64,000 bases of DNA from Candidatus Bathyarchaeota archaeon (GCA_963739305.1 CAVTZU010000024.1:1-64000); one strand, 5' to 3'. Numbered from the stretch's first letter, positions 1,024 through 19,655 are shown. Made by a program: numbers and translations. The notes: generated by a model not told the origin, from the letters alone.

Positions 1024-1177
1024 GTTCGCACCACGCTCGCGCGACGTATAGACTACTTCATGAGCTTATAATTCTTCCTGATAACGGCAATCAGAGATGT
1101 GAACCAACAGTCTTAATAGGGTCTACTTACACTGACTACGTCAGGAAAACTGGACTACTCAAAAGGTTTGAGAAAGA

Positions 1178-1329
1178 TGAGCAACGTGATAAGATCTGTG
1201 CCAACTCGAGCCATTCGAAGCGCACGTGCTAAACCAGGAGTTGAAATGTTGAAAATGCGCAAAATTGTCCGAGTAATTGAAGACGTAACAGAAACGCTAA
1301 AGGAGGTGCAAACGTGCAGAAAGAGCTGA
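1178..1329 (+). CDS. Small hypothetical protein (~50 aa) leading the element operon
   Basis: Hand-translated MSNVIRSVPTRAIRSARAKPGVEMLKMRKIVRVIEDVTETLKEVQTCRKS*; overlaps the next gene and contains its SD (AGGAGGTG). Confidence 0.35.
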
Positions 1330-2277: not shown

Positions 2278-2990
2278 AGAAGAAACGCTTTGTTTTTCCA
2301 TGGGAGAGTATGGCCACTCTGACCTGTCCACATTGCAAGAGGGAGATCCAGACACTTCCACTGTGGCCGTGGGAGAAACCGGAAGACAAGATCAGAGAGC
2401 TTCAACCCTTCTTTTGTCATACGATAGATGCATCACTCATCAAACAGGCACCGGTGCTAAGCGAAAACGACGTGAAATGCGCACAGAAATTGAAAGAGTT
2501 CAAAAGGGAATTCGTAGACGAGCGCGGAGAACTGAAAACTGATGAGGCCATACAGGCGTTGTTCTCCGCTGAAAAAGGGCCCCCTGAAATCTTCTTGAAG
2601 CATGGTGCATTTCCCTTGTTGAGCTTATTCACGGAAACCAGTCTCAAGGTTCTGTACATCTTCCTGTGCTTGGATCCGACACAACGACCATACCAGAAGT
2701 TCTTCTTGTAATGCATGAAAACGTCAAACGCTAGCATTTCGACGATCATAAAAAAGCTAAGGAAATGGAAATTGGTGGTGGCTTACAAGGCCACGGCTAC
2801 GGGCAGGGCAAATGGCAGACAACTATGTTATGGTTTGAGCACCGTCGCGCGGCAAAGGCTTGACAAGGACCTTACGGAGTGTGACTTCTTTCGCGAAACT
2901 GTGAGAAGAACCGTTAGACCGATTGCCCTAAGCTATTCCCAGATCCATTGGAGATCAGACATCGGATTGTTGAAAAGAGAAAACGAGTAG
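2274..2990 (+). CDS. Hypothetical protein with N-terminal CxxC and C-terminal winged helix, split by an in-frame TAA at 2709-2711
   Basis: ORFs 2274-2711 and 2715-2990 are in the same frame; TSNASISTIIKKLRKWKLV...YGLS is wHTH-like. Confidence 0.5.
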
Positions 2991-3073
2991 GTCGTTGAAC
3001 GATGAGGTTAAGCAAACGTGTGCAAGCGAAAGAAATCACTCGAAACTGACGCGCAGGCTACTTTATCGGAGGG

Positions 3074-3379
3074 ATGAATGAAATGGCTGAAGGAGAGGCT
3101 GGTTCTCACAAAGATAACCCATCTGATGATCTCGGCTCGAAGCCACCTGAAGAGTCCGAGTCCCCGACCCTTCCGCAGCCTATCACTCAGCAATGCCGAT
3201 GCCCTCAGTGTGGGTCAGCCAACGTCTACAAGTCTGGATTCAGATACCTGACAAATGGTGAGAGGGTTCAGCTTTTCTTCTGCAAAATCTGCTCCTACCG
3301 ATTCTCCCAGCCCAAGGAAAAGCTACGCGTCGCCAGTCAACCTGTCGAAAACACAAAGTCGCGCGGAGAACCATCCTGA
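3074..3379 (+). CDS. Zn-ribbon protein (IS1 InsA-like CxxC...CxxC) directly upstream of the integrase
   Basis: CPQCGSANVYKSGFRYLTNGERVQLFFCKICSYRFS. Confidence 0.6.
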   Translation: MNEMAEGEAGSHKDNPSDDLGSKPPEESESPTLPQPITQQCRCPQCGSANVYKSGFRYLTNGERVQLFFCKICSYRFSQPKEKLRVASQPVENTKSRGEPS

Positions 3380-3489
3380 AAGAGCTATAGCCCCACGCGA
3401 AGTCACCAACGAGGAAAAGCGCTATATGGTCTCGCTTCCTTACAATGACACGCGGCAAGTATGCGCCCTCGAAACAAGGGGCGAAAAAC

Positions 3490-4458
3490 TTGACTGAAAC
3501 AACCCGACAAGAAACGGCCCAGCGGGAGGGCACAACGCCACTAAGCCAGCAGAAGATCGTTGAATACATCTGGTACATGAAGAAAAACGGACGCAAAGAA
3601 ATCACAATTGGCGGCAGAGTCAAACTCATCAAAAGGCTCACGAGGTTGGGAGCCGACCTGTACGACCCCGAAAGCGTCAAGCGAGTCATCGCGGAACAGA
3701 CATGGAGCGACGGAAGAAAGGACCTGGCCTGCGACGCCTACACGACGTTCCTAGCGATGAACGGCGGAACATGGCAACGCCCAACCTACAAGCACGTGGA
3801 CAAGGAGCCCTTCATACCTCAGCCTTCAGAGGTGAAACAGCTGATAGCGGGGTGCAGCCCACGGATGGCATGCTTCCTCCAGACGCTCTCGGAGACGGCA
3901 ATGCGCCCCGGAGAACTCTGGCAGCTGTGCTGGTCAGACTACGACCAGCCCACGAGAACCCTGAAGGTCACGCCCGAAAAAGGCTCGAAGTCCGGAACCT
4001 ACAGAGTCTCGAAAGAGCTCGCACAGATGATTGAAGCCCTACCGAGAAAGTACGGCGAGAGAATGTTCTCAACGCCCAATATGCGCCTGGAACACCACAG
4101 CCTCAACTTCACCCACCAACGGAAAAGAATAGCGTTCAAGCTCAAGAACCCCAGGCTGCTGCGCATAAGCTTCAGAACGCTCCGCCACTTCAGAGGAACG
4201 ATGGAAGCCTGGCGAACAAGGGACCCCTTCCACGTCCAACAGTTCCTCCGACACAGAAACATCAATAACACCATGCGATACATCCACCTTGCCCAGGTGC
4301 TGTTCAAGAACGAACAGGAATGCATCACAAAGGTAGCTCACAACGTCAACGAAGCCTGCGCTCTCATCGAGGGCGGATGGAAGTACCACACGGGCGAATA
4401 CGACGACGGCGGCAAGATCTTCGCAAAACCCAAAGACCCATTGGCTTCAGAGCAGTAA
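3490..4458 (+). CDS. Tyrosine recombinase/integrase
   Basis: Catalytic pattern R (AMRPGEL), K (TPEKG), RTLRH, LRHRNI, Y (TMRYI). Likely start is TTG 3490 after GGGG; ORF track starts at 3445. Confidence 0.92.
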   Translation: MTETTRQETAQREGTTPLSQQKIVEYIWYMKKNGRKEITIGGRVKLIKRLTRLGADLYDPESVKRVIAEQTWSDGRKDLACDAYTTFLAMNGGTWQRPTYKHVDKEPFIPQPSEVKQLIAGCSPRMACFLQTLSETAMRPGELWQLCWSDYDQPTRTLKVTPEKGSKSGTYRVSKELAQMIEALPRKYGERMFSTPNMRLEHHSLNFTHQRKRIAFKLKNPRLLRISFRTLRHFRGTMEAWRTRDPFHVQQFLRHRNINNTMRYIHLAQVLFKNEQECITKVAHNVNEACALIEGGWKYHTGEYDDGGKIFAKPKDPLASEQ

Positions 4459-4495
4459 ACGCTGATTCCGGGACCCCCCTCATTTTTCGACATGG

Positions 4496-4605
4496 TGGTG
4501 CGGGGGGTGGGATTTGAACCCACGAACCCCTGCGGGATAGGCTCCTGAAGCGTCCGCGTCGCTTTTTGCGACTCTACGCCTTTGGCCATGCTCGGCGACC
4601 CCCGC
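4496..4605 (-). tRNA. tRNA-Leu(CAG) with a 22-nt intron at non-canonical position 29/30 (4552-4573)
   Basis: GCGGGGG/CCCCCGC acceptor stem, A73+CCA, long variable arm, GGTTCAAATCC T-loop; removing the intron restores TAGGC-TTCAGGA-GCCTA. Confidence 0.92.
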
Positions 4606-4874
4606 TTTGCTCCTACTGAATGTCATGCGGAAATGTTTAAGAGTTACTGTAGACTTTACCGTACAAACGGTGAATAATAATGCCGACTCACGGCTCCTTG
4701 TCGAAAGCAGGGAAAGTTCGATCGCAAACGCCGAAAATTCAGGCGAACCCCAGGAAAAGCCCTAGCCCACGCTTCAGAAACAAACGCAACTACGAGAAAA
4801 GAGTTGTTCTTCAGAGGAAACCTGGACAAAACTGGGTTTAAGACTTTTATCCTGACTTCTGGATACTCGTCAGC

Positions 4875-6455
4875 ATGCAACGAGCCAGTCTCATTCTCAC
4901 GAACGCCAACGTCATCACACTAGACCCTCAAAAACCCAGAGTTCAAGCAATTGCCATTGATGCCGGGAAGATCGTTGAAGTAGGCTCAAACAGAAAAATC
5001 GTGAAGTTCAGAGGCAAAAGTACAAGAATCATTGACTGCTGTCGCAAAACCATCGTTCCAGGCTTCGTTGACTGTCACGTACACATGAAAGAACTAGGAA
5101 TTTTCTCGCAAGAACTCAACCTCAGAGACGCAAGAACGATAAAAGAAATGCAAAGAATGCTCCGTGAATACGCTGAGAAACACCCTGAAGTGGAATGGAT
5201 AACTGGAGGTCGTTGGGATCACGAGAAATTCAAGGAGAAACGTTATCCGACCCGCTGGATTCTAGACGCCGTCGTATCAGACAGACCAGTTCTACTTAAT
5301 CGTGTCTGCGGCCACCTCGCAGTTGTAAACAGCAAGGCTTTACAGCTTGCCGGAATAACGAAAAACACCAAGATAAGTGGTGGAGAGGTCGACTTGGATG
5401 AAGAGACGCGCCGACCAAACGGAATACTTCGAGACAACGCAATAGATCTCGTCTGGAAGGTTGTTCCGAGGCTTAGCAAAGAGAGAATTGAAAAAGCTTG
5501 CATGGTGGCGTGTGAGAAAGCAGTCGAGGCAGGGCTCACGGGCGTCCACTGGCTCTTGGCTTCGGCTGAGGAAATGCAGATTCTGCAGAAAATGTACAGA
5601 GACCAGACACTTCCGCTAAGAATCATCGTTGGCATTCCTGACCGATTGCTCGATGAAGTCGTCGCTCTCGGGTTGCTCAGTGGCTTTGGAAACGAAATGC
5701 TCAAAATAGGCTTCATTAAGATACTCGCCGACGGCTCCTTAGGAGCGCAAACGGCCGCGATGGAAAAAACATATTCGGACAACCCAAGAAAACGGGGCAT
5801 GATGCTCCATTCACGAAAGAAACTTCGCCAACTTGTCATGAATGCACACGTGAATGGTTGGCAGCTCGGCGTTCATGCCATTGGCGACCGTGCAATAGAA
5901 GAGGTGCTTCGCGCCTATGAGGAAGCATTGAAGAAAGCGCCGAGAAAAGATCACAGACACAGGATTGAACATTGCTCGATACTGAATCCGAAGCTGATTG
6001 GTGGCATGAAAAAGCTGGGAATTATCGCCTCCGTGCAACCTCACTTTGTCATATCTGACTCTTGGACTGTCGACCGCGTAGGCAAAGAAAGATCTCTATG
6101 GGCATATCCTTTCAGAACTCTAGTTCAACGTGGAGTCGTCGTCGCTTCGGGTTCAGACTGTCCGGTCGAGCTCATCAACCCACTGCTCGGAGTTTGGGCT
6201 GCCGTTGCGAGAATAGACAAGTTGAATGAGCGACTCACGGTCGAAGAAGCTTTGAAGACATACACTGTGAATGCAGCCTACGCTTCTTTTGACGAGGACA
6301 AGAAAGGAACTGTTGAGAAAGGAAAATTCGCAGACCTAACCATCCTCTCACACGATCCGACCAAGATCTCACCGAGCAAAATACGAGACATCTCGGTTGA
6401 AATGGTGATAGTGGGCGGAAAAGTCGTCTATTCAAAAAAACAAGGCAAACATTGA
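4875..6455 (+). CDS. Metal-dependent amidohydrolase (YtcJ/amidohydrolase-3 family)
   Basis: PGFVDCHVH, KILADGSLG, HAIGD, RIEHC, GSDCPV motifs. Confidence 0.92.
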   Translation: MQRASLILTNANVITLDPQKPRVQAIAIDAGKIVEVGSNRKIVKFRGKSTRIIDCCRKTIVPGFVDCHVHMKELGIFSQELNLRDARTIKEMQRMLREYAEKHPEVEWITGGRWDHEKFKEKRYPTRWILDAVVSDRPVLLNRVCGHLAVVNSKALQLAGITKNTKISGGEVDLDEETRRPNGILRDNAIDLVWKVVPRLSKERIEKACMVACEKAVEAGLTGVHWLLASAEEMQILQKMYRDQTLPLRIIVGIPDRLLDEVVALGLLSGFGNEMLKIGFIKILADGSLGAQTAAMEKTYSDNPRKRGMMLHSRKKLRQLVMNAHVNGWQLGVHAIGDRAIEEVLRAYEEALKKAPRKDHRHRIEHCSILNPKLIGGMKKLGIIASVQPHFVISDSWTVDRVGKERSLWAYPFRTLVQRGVVVASGSDCPVELINPLLGVWAAVARIDKLNERLTVEEALKTYTVNAAYASFDEDKKGTVEKGKFADLTILSHDPTKISPSKIRDISVEMVIVGGKVVYSKKQGKH

Positions 6456-6532
6456 TTCGTTGTCACATAGCGCACTAGAACATAGTTCCAGAAATCATAT
6501 CTGTTAATTGAACCGAACAACATTGAGGAGAA

Positions 6533-9292
6533 ATGCGCAGGGGATTCGTTTTTGGAATAGTACTGGTTGTTTTGTTGGCAGGGTCACTTATGTCGGCCTT
6601 CGAAATCATTCCCGTCAAATCAACCGGAACCATTTACATTAGAGCGGACGGCTCGATAGACCCGCCAACGTCCCCAATCGAGACCAATGACAAAATCCTT
6701 TACGTTCTTTCGAGTGACATCAACGGATCTATCACCGTTGAGAGAAACGGCGTGACAATTGACGGAAAAGGACACACACTCCAAAGCTCCGGAGACCAGA
6801 ACGGCATTTCGATATCCAGCGTGAATGGAGTTACACTAAGAAACACATGCATCAAAGGGTTCAACTACGGCATCTACACGCAAGCTTCTCACTATGACAC
6901 AATAAATGGAAACAATATAACAGCAAGCAAGGGTGCAGGAATCTATCTATACTACTCTTACAACAACAACATTACTAGAAACATGCTGTCAGGCTCGGGC
7001 ACGTCCAGCTTCGGAGGCCTTCGACTCAACTGTGCAAGCTACAACAACATCACTGGAAACAACATCGAATCAAACAACTACGGAATCTACTTCTACGATT
7101 CCGAGTCCAATCAGATCTCTGACAACAACCTCATGAACAACTCACGCAATGCATATGGAGCATGGGACATGTCGTTCACCTCTCCCGGAAACATTTGGAA
7201 CGATAGCTATCCATTTGGCGGCAACTACTGGACGGACTACAATGGCATAGACCTCTACAGCGGCGTATCTCAGAACGAAACTGGCAGCGATGGAACAGGA
7301 GATACACCCAAATTAATCCAGGTTGACGATTTCTCCCAGAGTTTTCCAGCTGTCTTTTACGAACTCGACAACTATCCACTAATGAAACCTTGGATGCCGT
7401 ACGACAATGGAACGATTCGCATCAAGGCTGATGGAAGCGTAGACCCTTCAGGAGCACCGATTCAACGCAAAGGAGATTTCTACACTTTGTACGATGACAT
7501 AAACAGCGATTCTGACGGGATAATCGTTGAGAAGAACGGCACAACTTTGGACGTGATAGGCAATACGATTCTAGGCAATGGAAACGGAAACGGCATAACT
7601 GTCAAATCAAATGCAGAACGTTACGCTCCTCAACGCAAAAGTCGAAGCCTTCCAAAACGGAATCAGTATCCAAAACTCCTCATACATCAAGATCATTGGA
7701 AACAACGTAACGTCCAGCGTGGCAGATGGAATCTACCTCTCGGGAGGAGAATAGTTCAATCATCACAAACAATGCGATCACAAAAAGCGGAAACAGCGAT
7801 GTCAGATTGTGCTCGACAAATGGCGATTCGGTGTCTTACAATATTCTGACCAATTCTTCATGCGGCATGAGCCTGGAGAAATCAAACAACAACTCAGTGC
7901 TGAACAACGATCTGACTTTGAACGACAATGGTCTAATGCTTTTCCGTTCTTCGAGCAACAACCTTGCTGGAAACATCGCTGAAAACAACACTCGCGGCGT
8001 CAATCTTCAGTCATCGCCGAGCAATACTTTGACTACCAACATTATGGCTGGAAACACATACAGTTTTGGTGTTTTTGGCGAATCCTTGATGGACTTCATG
8101 AATTCAATTGACGCTTCAAACTATGTGGATGGTAAACCAGTTTTCTACGTCCTAAACGAAAGCAACGTGGTAGCAGATTCCGAAGCTGGATACTTAGGGT
8201 TCATAAACTGCAGAAACATAACAGTTAAAGGCCTGACTTTGGAAAACAACATCAACGGCCTCCTTCTAGCATACACCTCTAATTCAACAATCGTTGGAAA
8301 CTATGTAACAAAAAACCAGTTTGGAATTTGTCTTAGCAACTCTTCAAACAACTTGCTGATTGAAAACACAGTGTCAGACAATGACTGCGGAGTCTGCTTC
8401 AACCGATCATCAACAAACAGCATATTGGACAACAGTATTGCAAACAACGGATATGGCATCTTCTTTTCAGAATCGTTGAGAAACGACGTAGCCCGAAACG
8501 ACATGATCGGCAACCACGTCTGTATGAACCTTTCTGCCTCTTCAAACAACCTCATCTATCACAACAATTTTACGAGCAACGAAATACAGCCCAGCTCTAG
8601 CCTGCGACTGTCCAAACGCGTGGGATAACGGATATCCTTTCGGCGGCAACTATTGGAGTAACCAACCTAGAAATGACACGCTTACTGGACCAAACCAAAA
8701 TGAGACTGGCAGCGATGGAATATGTGACACGCCTTACAATGTCAATGCAAACAACACAGACAGATACCCTCTTATGCGCCCTTGGACTCCGCCTGAAATT
8801 GTGGTGAAAGACCTGCAAACCTCAAAAGCCATCCTCGGTAGGGGATACGCAGAAGCAGTGAACGTGAGTTTTGAAAACCTGGGTGGAAAGATTGAAGCAT
8901 TCATTGCTACGATCTACGCCAACTCAACTCTGATTTATTCAGAACAATTCACAATAGGAATGGCTAATCTTACGATCAGCTTCGACTGGAACTCATCTAA
9001 ATTTGCCTATGGCGTCTACACTTTGCGCGCCTATGCAGAGCCTTGTCCAGGAGAGACTAATACCGCAAACAATAGTGCCGCGACAGGTAATCTGACCCTC
9101 ACCGTCCCAGGAGACTTGACTTGCGATTTCAGTGTCGATGTCTATGACGCCATAATTCTCGCCAGTTCCTACGGCTCCAAACCGGGCAGCTTAAATTGGA
9201 ATCCTAATTCGGACATCAATAACGACAATTTCGTTGATATCTATGATGCCCTAATCCTGGCCGGCAATTTTGGAAAGTCAGCTCAGCTCTGA
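6533..9292 (+). CDS. Secreted right-handed beta-helix (NosD/CASH-like) surface protein with Ig-like and C-terminal dockerin-like domains; split by several frameshifts
   Basis: Signal peptide, Asn-rich GIxL..SxNNxIxxN repeats, duplicated GGNYW..NETGSDG.GDTP module, C-terminal GD...DVYDAIILA...DINND..VDIYD. Spread over ORFs 6533-7849, 7726-8628 and 8774-9292. Confidence 0.8.
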
Positions 9293-9375
9293 ACTGGGCA
9301 TTTCCAAGCCCTCGAGTGTTTCTGCATCTATCGGATGATTTAAGAACCTTGAACACTTTGTGCAATTAGTCAGCA

Positions 9376-10986
9376 GTGGCTGCTATGAACTTGGACGAAG
9401 ACAAACCAATGCGAGAAATAATTCAGACCCTGATGAAACAGCCGAAACCTACATATAACGACTTACACAATGCGAAAGTTCAAGCAGCAACCAAGTTCCA
9501 GCTCAACAGAATTCCGTCAAACTCGGAGATCATTCTCGGCCTCAAAAGTGACGAGAAACGAAAACTCTTGCCAATTCTCAGACGAAAAACCACGCGGACA
9601 ATATCAGGTGTCACGATTGTCGCGGTGATGACTAAGCCATACCCGTGTCCACAAGACGAACCTTGCGCCTATTGTCCAGGTGGGCCAGAATATGGTGTCC
9701 CTCAAAGTTACACGGGCTACGAACCAGCAACAATGCGCGGAATTCAAAACAAATTTGACCCATACCTGCAAGTAAGGACACGAATCGAACAGCTGAAGGC
9801 CATAGGACACAAAGTTGACAAAATAGAACTCATCATAATGGGAGGGACTTTCCCATCAACTCCCACGGACTATCAGACTGGGTTTATTCAACGTTGTCTC
9901 GAAGCAATCACAGAAAAGAAATCAGCAAGCTTGAAAGAAGCAAAAAAGAACGCTGAAAGAAGCAAAACACGCAACGTTGGAATAACCGTTGAAACCCGCC
10001 CAGATTGGGCCAAGCAAACCCACGTTGACAGAATGCTGGAAATGGGTGTCACACGCGTGGAAATGGGCGTACAGCATCCAAGCGACAGAATCTACCGCCT
10101 CGTTGGAAGAAAACACACCGTTGCAGACGTTGTTGAAGCAACTCGCATCATGAAAGACGCAGGACTCAAAATCGTCTACCATATGATGCCTGGAATTCCT
10201 GGGTCAGACCGTGAAAAAGACCTTCAAGCTTTCAGAAAAATCTTCTGCGATCCGCGATTCAAGCCTGACATGATCAAAATCTACCCATGCCTCGTCTTGA
10301 AAGGGACCAAGGCTTTCGACTGGTATACGCAGGGCAGTTACAATCCCTACACAACAAGTGAGGCAGCTGATCTCATAAAGGAGGTTAAGAAAATGACCCC
10401 GCCTTGGATCCGAATAATGCGAGTTCAACGTGACATCCCAGCGCGGCTGATAGAAGCAGGCGTCAAAAAAAGCAACCTTCGACAAATTGTTCAGAACCAA
10501 CTCCAAAAAGAAGCTGCAGAATGTCGGTGCATCCGCTGCAGGGAAGTTGGCCACAAGACAATAAACTCAGGCGTGAACGTTGATCCCGAAAGGGTTCAAA
10601 TCGTTGACACAAGATACAAAGCTTCTGAAGGTCAAGAGATCTTTCTCTCAGCAGAGGACCCCGTCAACGACGCCATCATTGGTTACCTGAGACTGCGAGT
10701 CCCATCAGCACACGCTCATCGACCGGAAATCAAAGCAGCACCATGCACGCTCGTAAGAGAGCTGCACATCTACGGTTCTCTCGTCCCCGTCGGAAAACAC
10801 TTGGCAAAGGCCTGGCAACACAAAGGTTATGGGGGCATCCTTCTCTCCGAGGCCGAACGCATTACTCAGGAGAACTACAGTTTTAAGAAGATTTCAGTCA
10901 TAAGTGCTCTCGGCACAAAACAATACTATAGAAGATTCGGCTACAGTTATGACGGTGTCTACATGTCCAAAGTGTTGGAGGATTAA
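9376..10986 (+). CDS. elp3: tRNA uridine(34) acetyltransferase Elp3 (radical SAM + KAT)
   Basis: CPQDEPCAYCPGG, GITVETRPD, CRCIRCREVG, RELHIYG, WQHKGYG. Confidence 0.96.
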   Translation: MAAMNLDEDKPMREIIQTLMKQPKPTYNDLHNAKVQAATKFQLNRIPSNSEIILGLKSDEKRKLLPILRRKTTRTISGVTIVAVMTKPYPCPQDEPCAYCPGGPEYGVPQSYTGYEPATMRGIQNKFDPYLQVRTRIEQLKAIGHKVDKIELIIMGGTFPSTPTDYQTGFIQRCLEAITEKKSASLKEAKKNAERSKTRNVGITVETRPDWAKQTHVDRMLEMGVTRVEMGVQHPSDRIYRLVGRKHTVADVVEATRIMKDAGLKIVYHMMPGIPGSDREKDLQAFRKIFCDPRFKPDMIKIYPCLVLKGTKAFDWYTQGSYNPYTTSEAADLIKEVKKMTPPWIRIMRVQRDIPARLIEAGVKKSNLRQIVQNQLQKEAAECRCIRCREVGHKTINSGVNVDPERVQIVDTRYKASEGQEIFLSAEDPVNDAIIGYLRLRVPSAHAHRPEIKAAPCTLVRELHIYGSLVPVGKHLAKAWQHKGYGGILLSEAERITQENYSFKKISVISALGTKQYYRRFGYSYDGVYMSKVLED

Positions 10987-10987
10987 A

Positions 10988-12325
10988 ATGACCGGCGAAG
11001 AAACAGGATATCACGGGAAGGCGCTAGACGCAATAAAGAAGGTTCATGTTAACATCGGTGACATACTCAGAATATCAAGAGAAAGTGAAATCTACGAAGG
11101 CACCTTGATCCCACGATCAGAGTATGGTGATGAAAAACACGTCGTCGTGAAACTGAAGAATGGATACAACATCGGCGTGGAGATAACCCCTGAAACGATA
11201 ATCGAAAAAATCGGTGAAGGCGCAAAGCCGACTTTTTCTCCGCCTCCGCTACCTGAGCAGAAGGCAAAACTGCCCAAAGTTGCCATAGTCAGTACTGGCG
11301 GCACGATAGCAAGCCGCGTCGACTATCGAACTGGAGGCGTTCGCCCAGCCCTCAGCGCCAGTGACCTCTACAGCGTGGTTCCCGAATTGGCCGACGTTGC
11401 GCGCATAGAGACTCAGATATTTCTAAGCATTTTTAGCGAAGACATAACCCAGCAACACTGGTCGGAAATCGCAAAGACGGTAGCGGGGAAAATATCCGAA
11501 GGAGTGAATGGAGTTGTCATAGCTCATGGAACGGACACAATGGGATTCACCGCCGCGGCCCTGAGCTTCGCCTTGCAGGATCTTCCCGTTCCAGTAATAC
11601 TAGTCGGCGCACAGCGTTCAGCAGACAGACCGAGCTCGGATGCCGCAACAAATCTGTTCGGCGCGGTCCTCGCTGCAGCAGAAGCACCTTTCGCCGAGGT
11701 CGTGGTCGCAATGCACGAAACACCATCAGACAGTTCGATAGCACTCCACAAAGGAGCAAAAGTCCGGAAATGCCACACAAGCAGAAGAGACGCATTCAAG
11801 TCAATCAACGCTTTGCCAATGGCCCGAATAGAAGATCAGAAGCTAACTATGCTCACGCAAGATTATCGCAGGAGAGACCCATCGAGAAAACTTCACTTGA
11901 AACCCGAATTCGAAGAAAAAGTCGCCATGATCAAGTTCCACCCAGGACTTGACCCTGCCATAATAGATTTCTATACAGAAAAATGCTACAGAGGCATCAT
12001 CCTTGAAGGCACGGGACTAGGCCATGTGAGCAAACGCTGTCACATCGCAATAAGGAAAGCTATCGAAAAGAAAGTTGTAGTAGCGATGACCTCTCAGTGT
12101 ATCTGGGGTCGCGTCAACATGAATGTTTACAACGCTGGTCGTGACTTGCAGGCTTTAGGTATCATTCCTCTTGAAGACATGCTTCCTGAGACCGCTCTTG
12201 TCAAGCTCATGTGGGTTCTTGGACAGACAAGAGATCTCGATGAAGAAAAGAGACTCCTGAAAACAAATATTGCAGGTGAACTCTCGCCGAGGACTCTGCC
12301 TGAAGAGCTCATCCGCGAAGGATAG
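10988..12325 (+). CDS. gatD: Glu-tRNA(Gln) amidotransferase subunit D
   Basis: KLKNGYNIG, STGGTIASRVDYRTG, HGTDTM, QRSADRPSSD; ATG at 10988. Confidence 0.96.
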   Translation: MTGEETGYHGKALDAIKKVHVNIGDILRISRESEIYEGTLIPRSEYGDEKHVVVKLKNGYNIGVEITPETIIEKIGEGAKPTFSPPPLPEQKAKLPKVAIVSTGGTIASRVDYRTGGVRPALSASDLYSVVPELADVARIETQIFLSIFSEDITQQHWSEIAKTVAGKISEGVNGVVIAHGTDTMGFTAAALSFALQDLPVPVILVGAQRSADRPSSDAATNLFGAVLAAAEAPFAEVVVAMHETPSDSSIALHKGAKVRKCHTSRRDAFKSINALPMARIEDQKLTMLTQDYRRRDPSRKLHLKPEFEEKVAMIKFHPGLDPAIIDFYTEKCYRGIILEGTGLGHVSKRCHIAIRKAIEKKVVVAMTSQCIWGRVNMNVYNAGRDLQALGIIPLEDMLPETALVKLMWVLGQTRDLDEEKRLLKTNIAGELSPRTLPEELIREG

Positions 12326-12328
12326 GAA

Positions 12329-14242
12329 GTGACAAGGTTGGCAATTGACTATGAAACGATCGGTTTGAAAGTGGGACTGGAAATTCACCAGCAATTGAAC
12401 ACTGCACAAAAGCTATTTTGCAGCTGCAAACCGGGTCTCTTCAAGGATGAGCCAGAGATAACATTTCTTCGGAGATTGAGACCAACGCAGAGCGAGTTGG
12501 GTCAAGTTGACCCTGCAGCCTATTTTGAATTTCAGAAAGGAGTCAAAATCCTCTACGAAGCGAACCGCGAAACTTCATGTCTCGTGGAAATGGACGAGGA
12601 GCCGCCTCACGCGCTAAACCTGGAGGCCGTTGAAATAGTTATAACGGCTGCGTTAATGATGAACGCGAAGCCTGTAAGTGAAGTCCACGTTATGCGCAAA
12701 ACGGTTATTGATGGCTCGAACACAACAGGGTTCCAAAGAACATGTGCGATAGCTCTCAACGGAGAAATAAAAGTTGGTAACAAGAAAATTCCAATTCAAC
12801 ATGCGAGTCTAGAAGAGGACGCCGCAAGAAAAACAGGCGAAGCAGAATCAAACACTATAAGATATCGAATAGACCGACTGGGCATACCATTGATCGAAGT
12901 GGCAACAGGACCCACGATAAGATCACCGAAGGAAGCAGAAGAAGTTGCCCTCGCAATCGGAAGAATATTGAGAGCAACCGGGAAAGTCATTCGAGGGCTC
13001 GGATCAATTCGGCAAGACATCAACATATCACTTCCGAACGGTGCACTCATAGAAATCAAAGGGCTGCAGGAACTTGAACTCGTTTCTCTCGTTGTGGAAT
13101 ACGAAGTTCAACGTCAACTCAACCTGATCAAGATTATGGAAGAGCTCAATAAGAAGAGGGCAAGTGAAGAACTACTGAAAGATGATTTTCTAAGTGTAAA
13201 AGGAGTGTTTACGAACACAAAATGCAAAGTAGTGCAGAAAGCCCTTGAGAGAAACCTCGAAGTTCTGGCAGTTTGCTTGCCAAAATTCAATGGAATGCTG
13301 AAGTGGGAACTGGGCCCAGGACTAAGGCTCGGAACAGAGATGGCAGACCGAGCAAGATTCTGGGGGAAAGTAGGAGGGATATTTCACACAGACGAGTTAC
13401 CGGCTTATGGAATAACAACAGAAGAAATAGATAGTCTGAGAGAGGCTGTTGAAGCGAAAGAGGAAGATGCGGTTGTGTTTGTGGCAGACAGGCTCGAGAA
13501 CGCCGAAGACGCTCTGAGATCAGTTGTCGAAAGGGCTCGCGAAGCTCTAAGAGGTGTGCCGCAGGAAACCAGAGCGCCAAACGCCGATGGCACGACACGT
13601 TACATGAGACCGCGACCTGGAGCAGCGAGAATGTATCCCGAAACGGACATACCGCCAGTTGAGATAAAAAATGAACACGTGAGCGAAGTTCGTTCTCACC
13701 TTCCTGAACTGCCTGAACAGAAGCTTGACCGACTGCAAAAAGAGTACAAACTGAATGATAAGTTGGCAAAACAAGTCCTCAACTCTGAATATGGGGAGCT
13801 TTTTGAAACCATAGTAAAAGAAAGCAAAGTTATGCCGACAACTGTCGCAGCATTCATGACTGAGACTCTTAAATCCTTAAGAAGAGATGGCATTACCTTA
13901 GACAAAATCTCAGATGACCAAATCCGTGAAACCTTCAGACTTGTGGGCGAGGGAAAGATAAGCAGAGAAGCAGTAGCAGAAATTATTTCTTGGATATCAA
14001 AAGAAAAAGACAAGACAGTTCAAGATGCCATCAAAAAGCTGGGAATGCAGAGCATTTCAAGAGACGAACTGGACAAAGTCGTCACCAAAATAGTCGAGGA
14101 TAACAAGCATCTTGTCGAGACGCGTGGTGAAGACAGCTTCGGAGCGTTGATGGGCATCGCCATGAAAACCCTTCGAGGAAAGGCAGACGCGGCGCTCGTG
14201 AGCAAGATCCTAAAAGAAAAAGTCAAGGAAGCAATGAAGTAG
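12329..14242 (+). CDS. gatE: Glu-tRNA(Gln) amidotransferase subunit E
   Basis: GLKVGLEIHQQL, KTVIDGSNTTGFQRT, RPRPGAARMYPETD. Confidence 0.97.
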   Translation: MTRLAIDYETIGLKVGLEIHQQLNTAQKLFCSCKPGLFKDEPEITFLRRLRPTQSELGQVDPAAYFEFQKGVKILYEANRETSCLVEMDEEPPHALNLEAVEIVITAALMMNAKPVSEVHVMRKTVIDGSNTTGFQRTCAIALNGEIKVGNKKIPIQHASLEEDAARKTGEAESNTIRYRIDRLGIPLIEVATGPTIRSPKEAEEVALAIGRILRATGKVIRGLGSIRQDINISLPNGALIEIKGLQELELVSLVVEYEVQRQLNLIKIMEELNKKRASEELLKDDFLSVKGVFTNTKCKVVQKALERNLEVLAVCLPKFNGMLKWELGPGLRLGTEMADRARFWGKVGGIFHTDELPAYGITTEEIDSLREAVEAKEEDAVVFVADRLENAEDALRSVVERAREALRGVPQETRAPNADGTTRYMRPRPGAARMYPETDIPPVEIKNEHVSEVRSHLPELPEQKLDRLQKEYKLNDKLAKQVLNSEYGELFETIVKESKVMPTTVAAFMTETLKSLRRDGITLDKISDDQIRETFRLVGEGKISREAVAEIISWISKEKDKTVQDAIKKLGMQSISRDELDKVVTKIVEDNKHLVETRGEDSFGALMGIAMKTLRGKADAALVSKILKEKVKEAMK

Positions 14243-14879
14243 AATTTAGAAGCTTCCCATCAGGTACGGTGAGTTTGGAAGACCCGAGCAACTTGGCATC
14301 TTCACCGCAGTATGGGCAAACCTTGAATTCAGGCAGCAACGGCTTCCCGCATGCGAGACAGACGTAGGAATACTTCATCGAACCCTCAAGCTTCTCCACT
14401 TCCTTTGTCAAGTCCGTCAATTCCATTCGTATTAAGTCGATAGTCGTGGTCAACGGTTGAATCCCCTTGACCTCAGTCCTTACGTTTGTGATCAGGTCCT
14501 TGACGCTTGAAATCGTCGCGTTACTGGACTCGATCGTCTCGTACATTGCATCAAGGACTTCGCTTTTGTCCTCTACCATCTTTGACTCGGCAAGGCTCTG
14601 TCTCTTAGCGTCGCAAAGCACTTTGTTCAGGAACTGCTCCATAGGGTTTTCAAAAGCGACTGCGCAGGTTATTCCCCAAAAGGAAATACTTGCAATGGCT
14701 GACAGCCAGAGATACGTGACAGGGTTAATGGTAGCCAGTTTTTGGCCTATGAGTGGATACATACTAATCAGCTTGATCTGGGCGCCGGTTATCAGAACAT
14801 AGATGGATTCTATCAGGTGCGCCACAGAAAAGAAAGTCAACGAGCTGAAGATCCAGACTGCGAGCCCCTTCTTTGCCAA
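14223..14879 (-). CDS. Membrane protein with two TM helices, coiled coil and C-terminal Zn ribbon
   Basis: Hydrophobic N-terminus, heptad-rich middle, CLACG...CPYCG. Confidence 0.75.
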   Translation of the reverse strand: MAKKGLAVWIFSSLTFFSVAHLIESIYVLITGAQIKLISMYPLIGQKLATINPVTYLWLSAIASISFWGITCAVAFENPMEQFLNKVLCDAKRQSLAESKMVEDKSEVLDAMYETIESSNATISSVKDLITNVRTEVKGIQPLTTTIDLIRMELTDLTKEVEKLEGSMKYSYVCLACGKPLLPEFKVCPYCGEDAKLLGSSKLTVPDGKLLNSTSLLP

Positions 14880-15122
14880 GTGTCATCCCCGCGTCGTTAG
14901 TAGCGAATATAGACACACTATTGTATCTTAATATTTAATACAATGCTTCCGACCTAAAGCATATGTCAGAACTCGACATATATCGACAATCGATTCTGCC
15001 AATTGAAAAACTCTCATGGAAAAACTTGCGAGCTTCATCCCACGCAATAGCCACAACACATCATCTTCACGGAAGCATGTTATACACAAATCCTAAAAGC
15101 AGTTGCACCTTTCCTATATCAA

Positions 15123-15629
15123 GTGATTAATGTGCCGGACAAGACGACGAAGACAATTCATGGTAACTTTTCTTTTCGGCTGAAAACCAGTGACTATGAG
15201 GTTGAGATCAACGGGAGCCACCAAGAAGTCCTGGACACAATCAAGGACTTGCCAAACCTGGTAGTTAACGTCGACAAAGCCTTCGAAAAACTCAAGCCCA
15301 GAAAAATAGCCACCTTAACCGTCAAGACAGAACCCGCAAATCCCCAAAAAACAGCTCAACAGTACCCCAAAATAGCATCCTCAGAGAAGCTAGATGAAGC
15401 AATCCTAAGAATCCTAGAAACTGACTGGGGAAAATGGCGCCCACGAACGATTGACGAGCTGGATGAAGCCCTCCGAGCGAACGGAATGGAACAATCAACA
15501 CGAACACTCGGAGCAATCTTAACGGAATTGGTTAAGAAAGGGAAAGTTAGACGATGGAACACAAACGCTGGAAACGTCTTCATACTGGCAGAAAAAGAAG
15601 CCCTCCGTTCTCGGGGAGAAGTTGAATGA
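15123..15629 (+). CDS. Hypothetical beta-hairpin + winged-helix protein (paralog A)
   Basis: FRLKTSDYEVEINGSHQEV N-domain; RTIDELDEALRANG..TRTLGAILTELVKKGKVRR wHTH. Confidence 0.75.
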   Translation: MINVPDKTTKTIHGNFSFRLKTSDYEVEINGSHQEVLDTIKDLPNLVVNVDKAFEKLKPRKIATLTVKTEPANPQKTAQQYPKIASSEKLDEAILRILETDWGKWRPRTIDELDEALRANGMEQSTRTLGAILTELVKKGKVRRWNTNAGNVFILAEKEALRSRGEVE

Positions 15630-16096
15630 GCAAGGTTGCAATCAAGATAAAAACGTCGTTTGGCGAAGTCACAATCGAGGGAGAAAATCCGCAAGAAATC
15701 TTGGGAACGCTCGAAAGCTTCCCTGAAGGCTTCATGGAGAAGGTTTCAGAACTCGTTACAAGCCGCTTGGCGCCCTCAAGTATTCAGCTGAAAGGAATAG
15801 TCGAATCCACGACAGCGGGACCCGTTATAGTAGCACGTGAAAACCTCACTCATTATGAAGCCATAGGTTTGACTTTGTACGCCTCAGAGGAGAAGAAGAG
15901 CACCGCAGCGCAAATCCAAAAACTCTTGGAATCAAGCGGAATTAAGTGCATGGTTCCGGCACGTTTGAACGAGATGACGAAAAGAGGCCAAGTGTTCAAA
16001 CCAGACCCAAACAGACCCGAGTTCAAACTGACGATACAAGGCGAAAAATGGGTCGAGGACGAAGTCCTCGCCAAACTCAGAGGAAAAATGGGTTGA
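15626..16096 (+). CDS. Hypothetical beta-hairpin + winged-helix protein (paralog B)
   Basis: IKIKTSFGEVTIEGENPQEI; VPARLNEMTKRGQV..EFKLTIQG; ATGA overlap with A. Confidence 0.78.
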   Translation: MSKVAIKIKTSFGEVTIEGENPQEILGTLESFPEGFMEKVSELVTSRLAPSSIQLKGIVESTTAGPVIVARENLTHYEAIGLTLYASEEKKSTAAQIQKLLESSGIKCMVPARLNEMTKRGQVFKPDPNRPEFKLTIQGEKWVEDEVLAKLRGKMG

Positions 16097-16606
16097 CGCA
16101 TGAACCTAACCGTGTAACTGTTCAGGTTAAGCATAACAATTCTGAAGAAACTTTTTCAGGCACCCCAGAACAAGTGTGGTTGCTGCTCGACAGATTTTTC
16201 CGTCAATATCCTTCCCTCATTCGAGACTGCTAAGAGACTATCTTTGCAGGTGGACCTGCAATTAATCGCACGAGATTGCGAAAACGTCATCGGTCTTGCA
16301 GACGAGGGCCCATACATACTCGTTCCAAGGAACAAATTGACAGACAATGAAACTCTTGCGTTACTACTCCTTGCCAACTACATCGGTAACCGTATGGGCA
16401 AAGTGCAAAGTGAAGGACTTTCGAAGGAAGAGCTACAGTTAAGACTTGGAAAGGATGCGAAAATCACGAGCACACGCCTGGGCGAACTGGTGAAAAACGA
16501 AATAGTCGTTAGAACTGCCGACGAAAAATACAAGATCACAACTTTTGGGCTCGTTCAAATGCAAAAGGACATCTTGCCGAAAGTCAAATCAAAAACTGGC
16601 ATTTAG
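16093..16606 (+). CDS. Hypothetical beta-hairpin + winged-helix protein (paralog C), frameshift near 16200
   Basis: TTG 16093 overlaps the stop of B; VTVQVKHNNSEETFSGTPEQV then shifts frame into ...ITSTRLGELVKNEIV..YKITTFG. Confidence 0.7.
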
Positions 16607-16629
16607 GTCCGACTCCTCAAAGCACGTCG

Positions 16630-17049
16630 CTAAGTTGGCGGCCTCTTTTGTGCATATTGATATCTTCGGGGTTTTCCTTCCCTCGTCAGAATTCCGTCCT
16701 TAACGAGATCAATTAAGGCGTGGGCTACTGCCGTTCGATCATAGTGAAAACCGCGCCTTGCCAACTCGCTGTGAACCTCACCTAAACCTTTGGCGACGCC
16801 AAACCATCCTTCCTGCCAAAGCTTTTGGATCACGCCCTTACATGTTTCGGCTCTTGGTGCAGATGCATATCTCTCGGCAATAAGTGGACTCTCTTTCAGT
16901 TTCTCGGTCACCGTCGAGAGAATCTTGTCCACTGTGGGCTGAAGCTGATCTTCTTGGCATTCTATTTCGAATTCTATCTCGCCTATTTTCATCTTTAGCC
17001 GTATGGGAGGTTTGGCTTCTTGTTCGGTCAACGGCTCACCTTGTTGCAT
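16630..17049 (-). CDS. Hypothetical beta-hairpin + winged-helix protein (paralog D)
   Basis: IRLKMKIGEIEFEIECQEDQL; GLGEVHSELARRG..RTAVAHALIDLVKDGILTREG..RYQY; start ATG 17049 or TTG 17031. Confidence 0.75.
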   Translation of the reverse strand: MQQGEPLTEQEAKPPIRLKMKIGEIEFEIECQEDQLQPTVDKILSTVTEKLKESPLIAERYASAPRAETCKGVIQKLWQEGWFGVAKGLGEVHSELARRGFHYDRTAVAHALIDLVKDGILTREGKPRRYQYAQKRPPT

Positions 17050-17121
17050 ATTGTATTGTGCATCTTGTACATGCACAACACTTAAATATCTCTTCCCCAA
17101 ACAATTGGCTATTGGTGAATC

Positions 17122-18204
17122 TTGGTGATTGCACAATACCATATTGGTACAACACCAAAATATAACTTTCCACAATCCAACCTCGACACGCTTCTTCCAC
17201 AACAATTCACTCAACTCAGCCTACGTTCATTGAAGCGCACGAGAAACCCAATATTTCCACTAGACCAGCAAATCTGCCAACAAAGCGGCGATGAAAACAA
17301 CCTGCAAACACTGAGACTGAGGTTTGCGCCTGTGTTTTTGAAACCTTGCCACAAAGACACGCTCGTTGCAGCTGTTGACACGTCAACGATGAAAATCGCC
17401 GAGACAAACGCCGGCATTGTCATAGCAGTCAGAGGAGCAAATGTATGGAAACAAAACGGAAACTACCGATATACTCGAATGGGCCCTTTCATATTCCACA
17501 TTACAGAAGACAACAGGAGAGAAGTCTACAACAACCTTGAAAAATCCTACTTCAACTCCAAACGCGAACCCAGCCATCAAAGTGCACCAAGCCTGATGCA
17601 AATGCCCATGCGAATAGCAAGTCTTCTAGAAAGGTGGTTACAGGCCATGCTCACGAAAACCCTAAACAACGGACTGATTCTTTTTGACGGATCGCTAATC
17701 GCAGGAACGGCCGACACACCAATTCATCGAATGGCTGAAATTCTGGCGAGAGGAAGGGAGAGAGGCAACACGGTCTTGGCATTCTCGAAAATGACAAACC
17801 TCAGAGTCAACGGTTGCCTCATCACAGACTATGCGCTCGAACACCGACCTCCATACCTGCTTGAAACAGTTGGTCTGAAACTTAGGCCACCAATGGTTTC
17901 GATGGGGGACGTCTATGTTTCCAAACTGAGCAAAGGAAACTGGGCATTCCGACTGGACGTTGACCATCAGGTTTCTCCAGCTCAACGAATTGAATCCGTC
18001 GAGAAACTTCTTGGAAACGATCTGATCTCGCAAGGTTATCCTGAAACCCTTCGTCTTGCCCACATTCTTTGCACTTTTACTGCAAACGAAGTGTTAGCCA
18101 TGAAACACTTCATCACCCGCAAGTGCAGGCTTCAGATCATTAACAGACCAGACATGCACAAGCTTTTGTTCGGCCCGTTTGGAAAAGGGGAAAGCTACTC
18201 ATGA
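17122..18204 (+). CDS. nurA: NurA-family nuclease
   Basis: AAVDTS, LERW, LILFDGSL, FSK, GYPETLRLAH motifs; coupled to herA. Confidence 0.8.
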   Translation: MVIAQYHIGTTPKYNFPQSNLDTLLPQQFTQLSLRSLKRTRNPIFPLDQQICQQSGDENNLQTLRLRFAPVFLKPCHKDTLVAAVDTSTMKIAETNAGIVIAVRGANVWKQNGNYRYTRMGPFIFHITEDNRREVYNNLEKSYFNSKREPSHQSAPSLMQMPMRIASLLERWLQAMLTKTLNNGLILFDGSLIAGTADTPIHRMAEILARGRERGNTVLAFSKMTNLRVNGCLITDYALEHRPPYLLETVGLKLRPPMVSMGDVYVSKLSKGNWAFRLDVDHQVSPAQRIESVEKLLGNDLISQGYPETLRLAHILCTFTANEVLAMKHFITRKCRLQIINRPDMHKLLFGPFGKGESYS

Positions 18205-19655
18205 AACTATACAGAAAAGAAGGCAATATACTTCAGATACTCAGTTTTCCAAACGAGACTGTCGAAAAAGGAGACTATCTGCTTGTTGAGGACGCAGAAG
18301 AGGGAAGAGCTCTGATCGTTCAAGTAATCGATGTTCAGTTCGCAACCATACCAGGCGTTCTCGAAGAACTCCTTCGAAGTTTGCCGGATGGCGGCGAAAT
18401 GATCCAAGGCGAAGATGTTGATCCACTCGAAATTGCGCCGCACATCACTTACATGCAAGATGCAAGCCTGCTTGTCTGCAAAATCAGAGCCACGGTCGAA
18501 AACGAAAGTCTAAGTCCAAGCAGCTCGTGGCTGCCTTCGCGTTCACAATCGACGATAAAGAAACTCCCGATACCAACGCTTCTGAGCCTCGCAAAAACAA
18601 GCGGAAAACTCCCGATTATAGTTGGGACGGCGAAGGATTCTTCACTTTTAACCATAGACGCTTCGTCATTGGATGGAAGACTTAACATAATAACCGGAAA
18701 AAAGGAAACCGGCAAATCACATCTCTCTAAGCTGCTTATGGTAAACCTGGTCCACTACAAGGCAACTGTGGTTGTCTTCGACTTGAACGGCGAATACGTG
18801 AGTCTAGGGATGACTTCAGATGGAAAAATAAACGTTAACTTCGAAAAAATACACGTGCTGACGCCTTCCCAGAACTTCAAAGTAGCCCTGAAGCAAGTGG
18901 GCCTTCATATTCTACTCGGCATTCTCGTCCATGCGTTGCATTTGCCAGGCACTTCTTCCAGAGAATTCAGACGCATTTGGAAGGAGCTGCGGGACAAAAA
19001 CATGCTCACCCTGAACGAGTTAGGGGAGACAATACGCAATTGGAACTGCAATCAGCATGTCCGGGACGCTCTATTCTCGCGTTACCACGCCCTCGTGAAC
19101 TCAGGCTTCTTCACCGACAACATTGCCGAAGCTGCGCTTCTCGAGGAATCATTCCTGAAAGCGAAGGAGAATGGCGGGGCCATAATCATAAATCTCAGAA
19201 ATACTTCAACGATGGATCGCCAAATAGTCGTGGAATACATTCTAGGCAAACTAGTTGAATCGCTCACCAGTTACAGACTCAAGGCAGCGTTTCTGTTTGC
19301 CGAAGAAGCACATCTCTATTTGCGCGAAACTTACTGGGATGACATAGTGACCCGCATGAGGCATTTTGGAATCTTCACTACGTTTATCACCAATCAGCCT
19401 GACACAATCCGAGAAAACATCTACCGTCAAGCTGACAACATATTCCTATTCAATTTTACCAATGAGCATGACTTGGATGTGGTTTCAAGGGCTGCTCGAG
19501 TGGATGCTGAAACTGTAAGATCAATTGCACGGGATCTGCCCCCACATTACTGCCTAGCACTTGGCAGATCTGTTCGTGATTTTCCAATTGTTGCAAAAGT
19601 GAGAGCACTCGATCTTAAGACCATGGGAGAAACGAGACTTTTCTTTACTCCTTGA
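18201..19655 (+). CDS. herA: HerA/FtsK-family ATPase (helicase/translocase)
   Basis: N-terminal HAS-barrel-like region, Walker A ITGKKETGKS, VFDLNGEY, Walker B FLFAEEAH, RMRHFG..FITNQP. Confidence 0.85.
   Translation: MKLYRKEGNILQILSFPNETVEKGDYLLVEDAEEGRALIVQVIDVQFATIPGVLEELLRSLPDGGEMIQGEDVDPLEIAPHITYMQDASLLVCKIRATVENESLSPSSSWLPSRSQSTIKKLPIPTLLSLAKTSGKLPIIVGTAKDSSLLTIDASSLDGRLNIITGKKETGKSHLSKLLMVNLVHYKATVVVFDLNGEYVSLGMTSDGKINVNFEKIHVLTPSQNFKVALKQVGLHILLGILVHALHLPGTSSREFRRIWKELRDKNMLTLNELGETIRNWNCNQHVRDALFSRYHALVNSGFFTDNIAEAALLEESFLKAKENGGAIIINLRNTSTMDRQIVVEYILGKLVESLTSYRLKAAFLFAEEAHLYLRETYWDDIVTRMRHFGIFTTFITNQPDTIRENIYRQADNIFLFNFTNEHDLDVVSRAARVDAETVRSIARDLPPHYCLALGRSVRDFPIVAKVRALDLKTMGETRLFFTP

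Follow-up and report, generated by a model that had tools for sequence, protein, structure and literature searches.

Why should a HerA-NurA nuclease-translocase stand among small winged-helix (wH) proteins, with neither mre11 nor rad50 beside it? The question is raised by a gene cluster of a Candidatus Bathyarchaeota archaeon, contained in a stretch of 64,000 nt (GCA_963739305.1, CAVTZU010000024.1:1-64000) that is called the window below; counts at the level of order, family and phylum are of relatives of the window's genome. HerA-NurA is the minimal archaeal end-resection machine, and to our knowledge it had been met only in the company of Mre11-Rad50 or, in an accessory part, among CRISPR and defence systems. 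The cluster encodes a divergent NurA nuclease (NurA2, 17122-18204, + strand, 360 aa from a TTG start), a divergent ATPase of the HerA/FtsK superfamily (HerA2, 18201-19655, +, 484 aa) and four small wH proteins: A (15123-15629, +, 168 aa) and D (16630-17049, -, 139 aa counted from the ATG at 17049), which are paralogues of one subtype, and B (15626-16096, +, 156 aa) and C (16093-16606, +, TTG start at 16093, interrupted in the window), which are paralogues of another. Start/stop overlaps of four bases join A to B (ATGA), B to C (TTGA) and NurA to HerA (ATGA). These positions, from the list of open reading frames (ORFs) and from translations, agree with those of an initial annotation of the window, and its remark that mre11-rad50 are missing here holds: the neighbouring genes were identified as Z (a membrane Zn-ribbon protein), A-D, gatD/gatE and a Nudix gene, with neither mre11 nor rad50 among them.

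The gene arrangement is far beyond chance, and the gene set appears to be conserved in several uncultured archaeal lineages and previously undescribed. On balance we favour, at somewhat better than an even chance, the reading that A-D are dedicated DNA-binding adaptors or regulators of a vertically inherited, housekeeping-like NurA2-HerA2 nuclease-translocase.

Linkage and fusion of winged-helix proteins to HerA-type ATPases

In a census with hidden Markov models (HMMs), 50 loci had wide flanks, and in 38 of these (21/33 of those chosen via B, 17/17 of those chosen via D) the wH paralogues adjoin a NurA-HerA pair, several of the 12 misses being short contigs; D and nurA are head-to-head in all 34 D-containing loci. 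D and HerA2 occur together in 23 of the 34 other genomes sampled in the order and are jointly absent from 10, the last genome having a weak D-like match alone. The evolutionary link of the wH proteins to a dedicated NurA-HerA, as proposed in the initial annotation, is borne out by these counts. Other families of Bathyarchaeia and Brockarchaeota-type loci have co-directional operons of the order B-C-C'-NurA-HerA (L072) or B-C-A-NurA-HerA (L071, L082). In yet other loci (L052, L053, L060-L063, L066, L085) the NurA-HerA pair beside a D or A-like gene belongs to a different clade (Pfam NurA 2e-18 and 6.5e-23; DUF87 8e-13 and 4e-15), and the wH/NurA-HerA partnership thus outlives replacement of the enzyme pair.

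Three further details of these loci were noted. The third NurA-HerA clade is unlike both pairs of the window's genome, its best NCBIfam match being 'anti-phage-associated HerA' with 74 bits against 800. A Nitrososphaerota-type locus (L059, 6100-7549 and 10021-13133) carries a second D-like gene and two C-like genes 3.5 kb from D-NurA-HerA. At another locus (L086, 9670-10702) the NurA match falls in two pieces in different frames beside an intact HerA2, which may be a frameshift or a pseudogene.

Both wH subtypes also occur as domains of HerA-like ATPases. A 466-aa protein (L080, 7772-9172, - strand) consists of a DUF87 P-loop domain (3.3e-18), a coiled coil and a C-terminal B-type wH domain (E 1.1e-27 with the B profile); it forms two clusters in a set of 5.8 billion proteins, one of them on a 1.4-Mb contig. 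An exhaustive search of 1.84 billion representatives with the D profile yielded 466 proteins at E ≤1e-3, 100 at 1e-10 and 29 at 1e-30, including two in which a DUF87 P-loop domain and a coiled coil are followed by a D-type wH domain: P0343 (479 aa, DUF87 39.4 bits) and P0302 (499 aa, DUF87 19.9 bits, below the cut-off of 23.2), the latter with a wH domain 46% identical to D (E 1e-25). A third protein, P0385 (550 aa), has a like layout as judged from its sequence, with no Pfam match for the ATPase. The ATPase parts of P0302 and the L080 protein are homologous (E 3e-18); B-type and D-type wH domains therefore occupy an equivalent position on related HerA-like ATPases. A search for longer, fused relatives of B found one protein of 306 aa, by a word-based method that is weak for this purpose. 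The fusions fit a DNA-binding module serving a motor, and are the strongest sign to hint that both wH subtypes work physically with it.

The arrangement recalls FtsK, which carries a C-terminal gamma wH domain that recognises KOPS: by analogy, a motor of the FtsK-HerA superfamily would be combined with wH recognition, the wH domain lying C-terminal to the ATPase in the fused relatives. The modules of the window differ in being mostly separate proteins with an extra N-terminal hairpin, and in having a nuclease as partner.

NurA2-HerA2, the canonical pair and the question of defence

NurA2 is recognised by Pfam (PF09376, 32.4 bits against a cut-off of 21, E 8.4e-8; 34.1 bits in a six-frame genome search, with neighbours in frame), and its N-terminus as read from the TTG is conserved in relatives. 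D86, S88, P122, E170, D189, K223, Y306, P307 and H314 are invariant in 29 sequences, and D300 is conserved in at least 90% of them; of these, D86, E170, D189, K223, D300, Y306 and H314 we take to correspond to the catalytic residues of solved NurA structures. NurA2 had no sequence relative among PDB chains at E up to 1. HerA2 matches DUF87 (PF01935, 42.3 bits against a cut-off of 23.2) and its nearest solved HerA, 4d2i, at E 1.5e-4; G166, K168, G171, K172 and S173 of Walker A, E368 and E369 of Walker B and several arginines are invariant in 30 sequences, and the N-terminal region of approximately 130 residues is conserved. With the catalytic and ATPase residues retained, the pair looks active. 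HerA2 falls far below the cut-off of every NCBIfam HerA equivalog, including those for double-strand break repair (NF040819, 18.9 against 970 bits; NF040937, 17.7 against 800 bits), and the sources annotate ATPases of its type as 'ATP-binding', 'DUF87' or 'HerA-like'.

A second nurA-herA pair is present in the same genome on contig C11, beside split Rad50-like ORFs. NurA2 has no detectable similarity to the NurA of C11, and HerA2 has 24% local identity to the HerA of C11, which is also under the NCBIfam cut-off (94.9 against 800 bits), yet far above HerA2. The initial annotation had raised the matter of a separate canonical locus, and such a locus is represented by the nurA-herA pair and Rad50-like ORFs of C11; no Mre11-type phosphoesterase was recognised there, and the Rad50 zinc-hook Pfam model gave nothing above cut-off (19.2 bits) in the whole genome. 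By sequence, NurA2-HerA2 is a second, divergent pair distinct from the canonical repair pair. It shares with canonical HerA-NurA a NurA nuclease and a DUF87/HerA ATPase encoded by overlapping genes, with catalytic and Walker residues conserved; it differs in the absence of mre11/rad50 from the locus, in its very divergent sequences and in its small wH partners. At least one HerA2-positive genome has canonical-type HerA in 10 of 14 HerA2-positive families (for example in 14/14 genomes of family f23), by a census that at its threshold (E 1e-20) failed to pick up the canonical HerA of C11 and is hence uninformative for the window's order. NurA2-HerA2 is therefore not a simple replacement, since canonical-type HerA coexists with it in this genome and in other families.

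The C11 locus (L003, 3760-10343) continues from nurA-herA through two ORFs of unknown family to an AAA_23 ORF (277 aa) and, separately, a C-terminal piece of SMC_N (207 aa). Directly upstream of its nurA is a Zn-ribbon and RDD membrane protein, which recalls Z near the cluster of the window, and close by (L003, 2609-3628) is a type I dockerin domain protein (E 3.9e-16), unusual for an archaeon. Further DUF87/HerA-like ATPase genes of the genome are found at C17:88259-88810 (in a frame of 634 aa) and C29:4619-4780 (in a frame of 801 aa).

In a phylum-wide sample of 301 genomes, the B/C family is found in 85, the D family in 90 and HerA2-type ATPases (E 1e-40 or better) in 99. All three are absent from nine large families (137 genomes) save for three weak D-like matches. 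Of the 30 families tallied, 14 are HerA2-positive, and each of these 14 carries B/C or D as well. A sample of 61 genomes of relatives has B in 55 (33/35 of the high-quality ones). The identity of B is 55-88% both within the family of the window's genome and across 8 of the 11 further families sampled in the order, falling to 24-50% in the most divergent families (f5, f10, f11 and f12). D is 52-86% identical among 15 aligned relatives, against 38-65% for NurA among 11 sequences of the order. Presence tracks taxonomy by family, with high sequence conservation and mostly a single copy per genome, and inheritance looks vertical, housekeeping-like rather than defence-like.

It is accordingly at this point that a role against viruses or plasmids has to be weighed, in which wH sensors would direct a HerA-scaffolded nuclease as in Sir2-HerA or CRISPR-associated HerA-NurA. 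The best NCBIfam match of HerA2 is indeed 'anti-phage-associated helicase HerA' (NF042943), the PADLOC HerA/mad8 models match it weakly, and the D-NurA-HerA unit is absent in 11 of the 34 genomes of the order; HerA and NurA are CRISPR-linked accessory genes in some archaea, according to the available portion of PMC3973734. The NCBIfam match is nevertheless far under its cut-off (41.7 against 800 bits), PADLOC matches neither A-D nor NurA, and the window of 64 kb is free of tandem-repeat arrays. Six flanking ORFs were scanned and proved to be gatD, gatE and genes for a Nudix hydrolase, an amino-acid-kinase-family protein, an MBL-fold protein and an HhH-GPD glycosylase, that is, housekeeping neighbours; no cas-type domains were found in these six, to which the cas scan was confined. 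A distribution that is conserved, mostly single-copy and follows taxonomy is also unlike that of patchy defence islands. The likeness to Sir2-HerA, DUF4297-HerA and CRISPR-associated HerA-NurA lies in a HerA-family ATPase paired with an effector and in weak HMM matches, whereas none of the seven proteins of the locus has a Sir2 or DUF4297 match in PADLOC and the system of the window is inherited vertically, by taxonomy. A defence function is thus very improbable, and the defence-type context mentioned in the initial annotation is disfavoured by the vertical-looking distribution, the housekeeping neighbours and the PADLOC results for A-D and NurA. An origin of the cluster as a mobile element or defence island was also considered, and rejected because of gene context and distribution.

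A two-subtype winged-helix family beside conserved palindromes

Pairwise BLASTP gives almost no signal between any two of A-D, but family alignments from related loci (A, n=34; B, n=44; C, n=42; D, n=16) compared with hhalign match B to C at 99.4% (E 5.7e-21) and A to D at 97.1% (E 7.7e-11). Matches across the subtypes are low scoring (A with B, 50%, E 1.7e-4; A with C, 60%, E 8.5e-5; D with C, 62%, E 7.8e-5; D with B, 4%, E 0.011), yet collinear over the full length. By these profiles A, B, C and D are a paralogous wH family in two real subtypes, B/C and A/D. The two subtypes of the initial annotation are accordingly upheld; the mutual homology that it had ascribed to all four stands within the subtypes but is weak across them (4-62%).

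An N-terminal beta-hairpin with a C-terminal wH domain, likewise anticipated, is seen in the AlphaFold models of B and D. The model of B (pLDDT 88.6) comprises a hairpin (residues 4-19), two helices, a second hairpin (59-68) in which G65 and P66 are invariant, the wH domain (76-135) and a C-terminal helix; that of D (pLDDT 77.8) comprises a hairpin (16-31), a long helix, a linker and the wH domain (70-134), which is very strongly kept (HYDRTAVAHAL.DL...GKPRRY.Y). A likewise has an N-terminal beta-hairpin, then a long linker and the wH domain. Fold searches were made with full-length B and D, and their matches cover the wH parts only. Residues 69-156 of B match at Z 9-10.8 with an rmsd of 2-3.4 over 72-84 residues, including PadR, MarR, F-93 and AspA (Z 9-11) and proteins of AspA/Sso10a type (4rs8, TM 0.75 on the target; 5k5o, Z 9.3); residues 57-139 of D match at Z 8-9.9, including the Hop2 wH domain, Fur, BlaI and Orc. 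The N-terminal 72 residues of B had no usable match in a search of the protein Atlas.

None of A-D (C both as the 120-aa piece of the window and in the intact form of locus L006) reaches a curated cut-off in Pfam or NCBIfam. A, B and D have no match at a meaningful E value to Pfam, the MarR and PadR models included; among the 42 members of the C family, MarR_2 matches one and HVO_A0261_N matches 10 at E ≤1e-3. Profile searches of the PDB yield E 0.065 or worse, and the one weighed for membership of the MarR/PadR families yields 0.57 or worse. The four proteins thus lie outside the curated families of Pfam, NCBIfam and PADLOC, and the sources annotate the small proteins as 'hypothetical' or, for some B homologues at JGI, 'predicted transcriptional regulator'. 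Their likeness to the wH proteins of the PadR/MarR and AspA/Sso10a types is in the fold of the C-terminal 80-90 residues (wH and helix in B, wH in D) and in the candidate palindromic operators nearby; they differ from these in standing outside the sequence families, in the extra N-terminal hairpin-helix and in being linked or fused to HerA-type ATPases.

The spacer between D and nurA was estimated at about 70 bp in the initial annotation and measures 72 bp, given a D start at ATG 17049; the genuine start may be some codons inside this ATG. The spacer holds an inverted repeat, TTGTGCA-N9-TGCACAA (17056-17078), conserved across classes and a candidate operator of D, which abuts a near-palindromic TATA box, TTAAATA (17082-17088), potentially shared by D and nurA-herA; the TTG start of nurA is preceded by a GGTGA Shine-Dalgarno site (17114-17118). 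The repeat has no second match in the genome (2.32 Mb). The half-site with TATA motif was counted on both strands of 79 loci (836 kb) and occurs 25 times. At 24 of these places it precedes nurA by 38-53 nt, in as many of the 28 loci where a divergent D adjoins this type of NurA; the other 51 loci have none of this kind. Its conservation spans Bathyarchaeia to Aigarchaeota-type loci (Caldarchaeum and Calditenuis in the names of the sources). D is the obvious candidate for the binder of the repeat, and a putative autoregulator. The part first assigned to D was in this respect incomplete: operator-binding autoregulation, which the conserved repeat suggests, had been left unconsidered.

Two other inverted repeats, both candidate operators, lie between Z and A. 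ATTGTAT-N11-ATACAAT (14920-14944), upstream of Z with an AT-rich, TATA-like core, is conserved in the same family and is the only strict match in the genome; ATATGTC-N7-GACATAT (14961-14981), in the Z-A spacer, has counterparts in relatives, where GACATATRTC palindromes occupy the equivalent place, and the genome has two such sites. A TATA-like box (CCTAAAAG, 15092-15099, + strand), of a motif CGYAAATYCTAAAAGG conserved upstream of A in relatives, suggests that the A-B-C transcript may be leaderless, because it is approximately 25-30 nt ahead of the A start. A scan with bacterial promoter and terminator models, which do not apply to archaea, did no better than on shuffled sequence.

Palindromes of this kind invite the simpler explanation that A-D are ordinary wH transcription factors and no physical part of a machine, D repressing or activating nurA-herA and itself, and the products of A-B-C acting as regulators of Z and of the operon that encodes them. 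Generic folds resembling MarR, PadR and Fur would be expected of such proteins, as would a divergent D beside a conserved, genome-unique palindrome abutting a TATA box, two further palindromes between Z and A, the JGI label on some B homologues and the retention of A-B-C where HerA2 is absent. Two to four paralogous regulators would be unusual for a two-gene operon, however, and in many lineages the wH genes are within the NurA-HerA operon itself; HerA-like ATPases are fused to wH domains of both subtypes, D and B are conserved to the level of HerA and above that of NurA, and all four proteins carry an extra N-terminal module that typical MarR and PadR proteins lack. Regulation alone covers the palindromes and the generic folds, but leaves unaccounted for the fusions, the position of the wH genes inside operons and how strongly they are conserved, and we consider it unlikely to be the whole function of A-D.

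Two features of the cluster bear on its membership. In the window, C runs in frame 1 to a stop at 16231-16233, with the remainder in frame 2 to 16606, owing to an extra single base near 16208-16211 (in the stretch 16195-16235). Four close relatives have one base fewer in this part of C, and the base at 16208/16210 is absent from near-identical contigs in all three public peat-metagenome runs that cover the site (depths of the contigs without it: X1, 6.47/6.47; X3, 15.8/22.1; X2, 14.2/43.7 and 11.9/26.1); a fourth public run does not cover it. Without the extra base the frame gives ...DRFFRQYLPSFETAK..., matching relatives codon by codon. Since public contigs lack the base, the interruption is probably an assembly or consensus error or a minor strain variant. 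The four ORFs of the initial annotation are right for the organism, C being intact in public contigs and relatives, which lack the base, but not literally for the window, where C is not a single ORF.

The second feature is Z (14223-14879, - strand), which has two hydrophobic segments by hydropathy, a coiled-coil stretch and a C-terminal CxxC...CxxC ribbon. Its Zn-ribbon matches in Pfam are under cut-off (21 against 25 bits), and its PADLOC matches are faint (E 0.0056 or worse). Among short loci of the window's family Z turned up in 21 of 29, but for the order's other families the count drops to 1 of 20 loci; Z is therefore a family-level neighbour and not a core member, contrary to the first view of it as a conserved part of the system. 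The 3' ends of gatE (ending at 14242) and the convergent Z (ending at 14223) overlap by 20 bases.

A proposed guidance module for a nuclease-translocase

If A-D are adaptors of NurA2-HerA2, as we favour, their wH domains would recognise a DNA site, structure or end, and the proteins would dock on, or load, the HerA hexamer and NurA dimer, a role parallel to that of Mre11-Rad50 for canonical HerA-NurA and of the gamma wH domain for FtsK. The common N-terminal hairpin would be the docking or oligomerisation element, replaced in the fused forms by the covalent coiled-coil link to the ATPase. D would have a second role, binding the repeat beside the shared TATA box and thereby controlling its own gene and nurA-herA. 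The machine would process DNA as a housekeeping task, be it repair, resection or the resolution of chromosomes, apart from the genome's canonical HerA-NurA.

Several observations weigh against this view. Physical contact of the wH proteins with NurA2-HerA2 is inferred, and the promoter and operator roles are putative, being read from sequence; a complex prediction for HerA2, NurA2 and D scored 0.00 against a mark of 0.32 and counts neither way. Ordinary transcription factors would look alike, since the wH domains resemble MarR, PadR, Fur and Orc in a generic way (Z about 8-11), and the docking role assigned to the N-terminal domain is conjecture because that domain has no recognised fold or relatives. 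Homology across the A/D and B/C subtypes is weak. The fusion proteins do not have the N-terminal barrel region of HerA, are rare and come from few metagenomic contigs, and no NurA adjoins the L080 fusion. The B/C family is kept in 10 of the 11 HerA2-negative genomes of the order, and the A-B-C module can sit far from D-nurA-herA; it follows that A-B-C functions, or can function, in the absence of this motor, and D is tied to NurA-HerA more tightly than A-B-C is.

The independence of A-B-C is what lends interest to another explanation, by which the wH paralogues would form a chromatin, segregation or site-specific DNA-organising complex resembling AspA/SegB, with NurA-HerA as an accessory FtsK-like pump. 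HerA is a member of the FtsK-HerA superfamily, the wH module has a wider distribution than HerA2 and is retained where HerA2 has been lost, B has AspA (the pNOB8 centromere-binding protein) and Sso10a among its fold matches, and the palindromes located at the genes themselves are akin to centromere-like sites. The AspA match is level with dozens of unrelated wH regulators, however; the palindromes are single-copy and not in arrays, no ParA-type gene is among the flanking genes scanned, and a nuclease partner with apparently active residues would be unexpected for a segregation pump. We think this explanation improbable for the system as a whole; for the wH module it is still viable, because A-B-C can exist without the motor.

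A more specific and decidedly tentative form of the adaptor reading is that the hairpin-wH paralogues assemble through their hairpins into a hetero-oligomeric ring or clamp, dock on HerA2 and load NurA2-HerA2 at specific DNA. Taken as a whole, the observation made in the initial annotation is partly confirmed and its interpretation, a hetero-oligomeric DNA-binding complex possibly feeding a dedicated nuclease-translocase, is partly supported.

No description of a NurA-HerA pair with wH paralogues was found in the searchable full-text literature, a scope that leaves supplements and subscription journals aside; a mention at the level of arCOGs may exist elsewhere. The available portions of PMC13748450, PMC7554672, PMC5797428 and PMC3973734 contain no such association, and those of the 2026 NurA review (PMC13748450) treat only the Mre11-Rad50 context and Asgard homologues.

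The NurA-HerA clade that the cluster represents is a second one, strongly conserved and accompanied by DNA-binding partners of an uncharacterised family, in lineages that are abundant and uncultured: Bathyarchaeia, Aigarchaeota-type Nitrososphaerota and Brockarchaeota, as the sources name them. It offers testable routes to the targeting of a HerA-type motor to DNA without Mre11-Rad50, to hairpin-wH as a new protein module and to a candidate regulatory switch of compact form (a bidirectional promoter with a 23-bp palindrome), as well as a candidate function for several core genes that count as 'dark matter' of these archaea. Were the clamp-loading form true, NurA2-HerA2 would be a stand-alone, Mre11-Rad50-independent DNA-processing system with a split guidance module resembling FtsK gamma, and would belong to the core of genome maintenance in Bathyarchaeia, Aigarchaeota-type Nitrososphaerota and Brockarchaeota.

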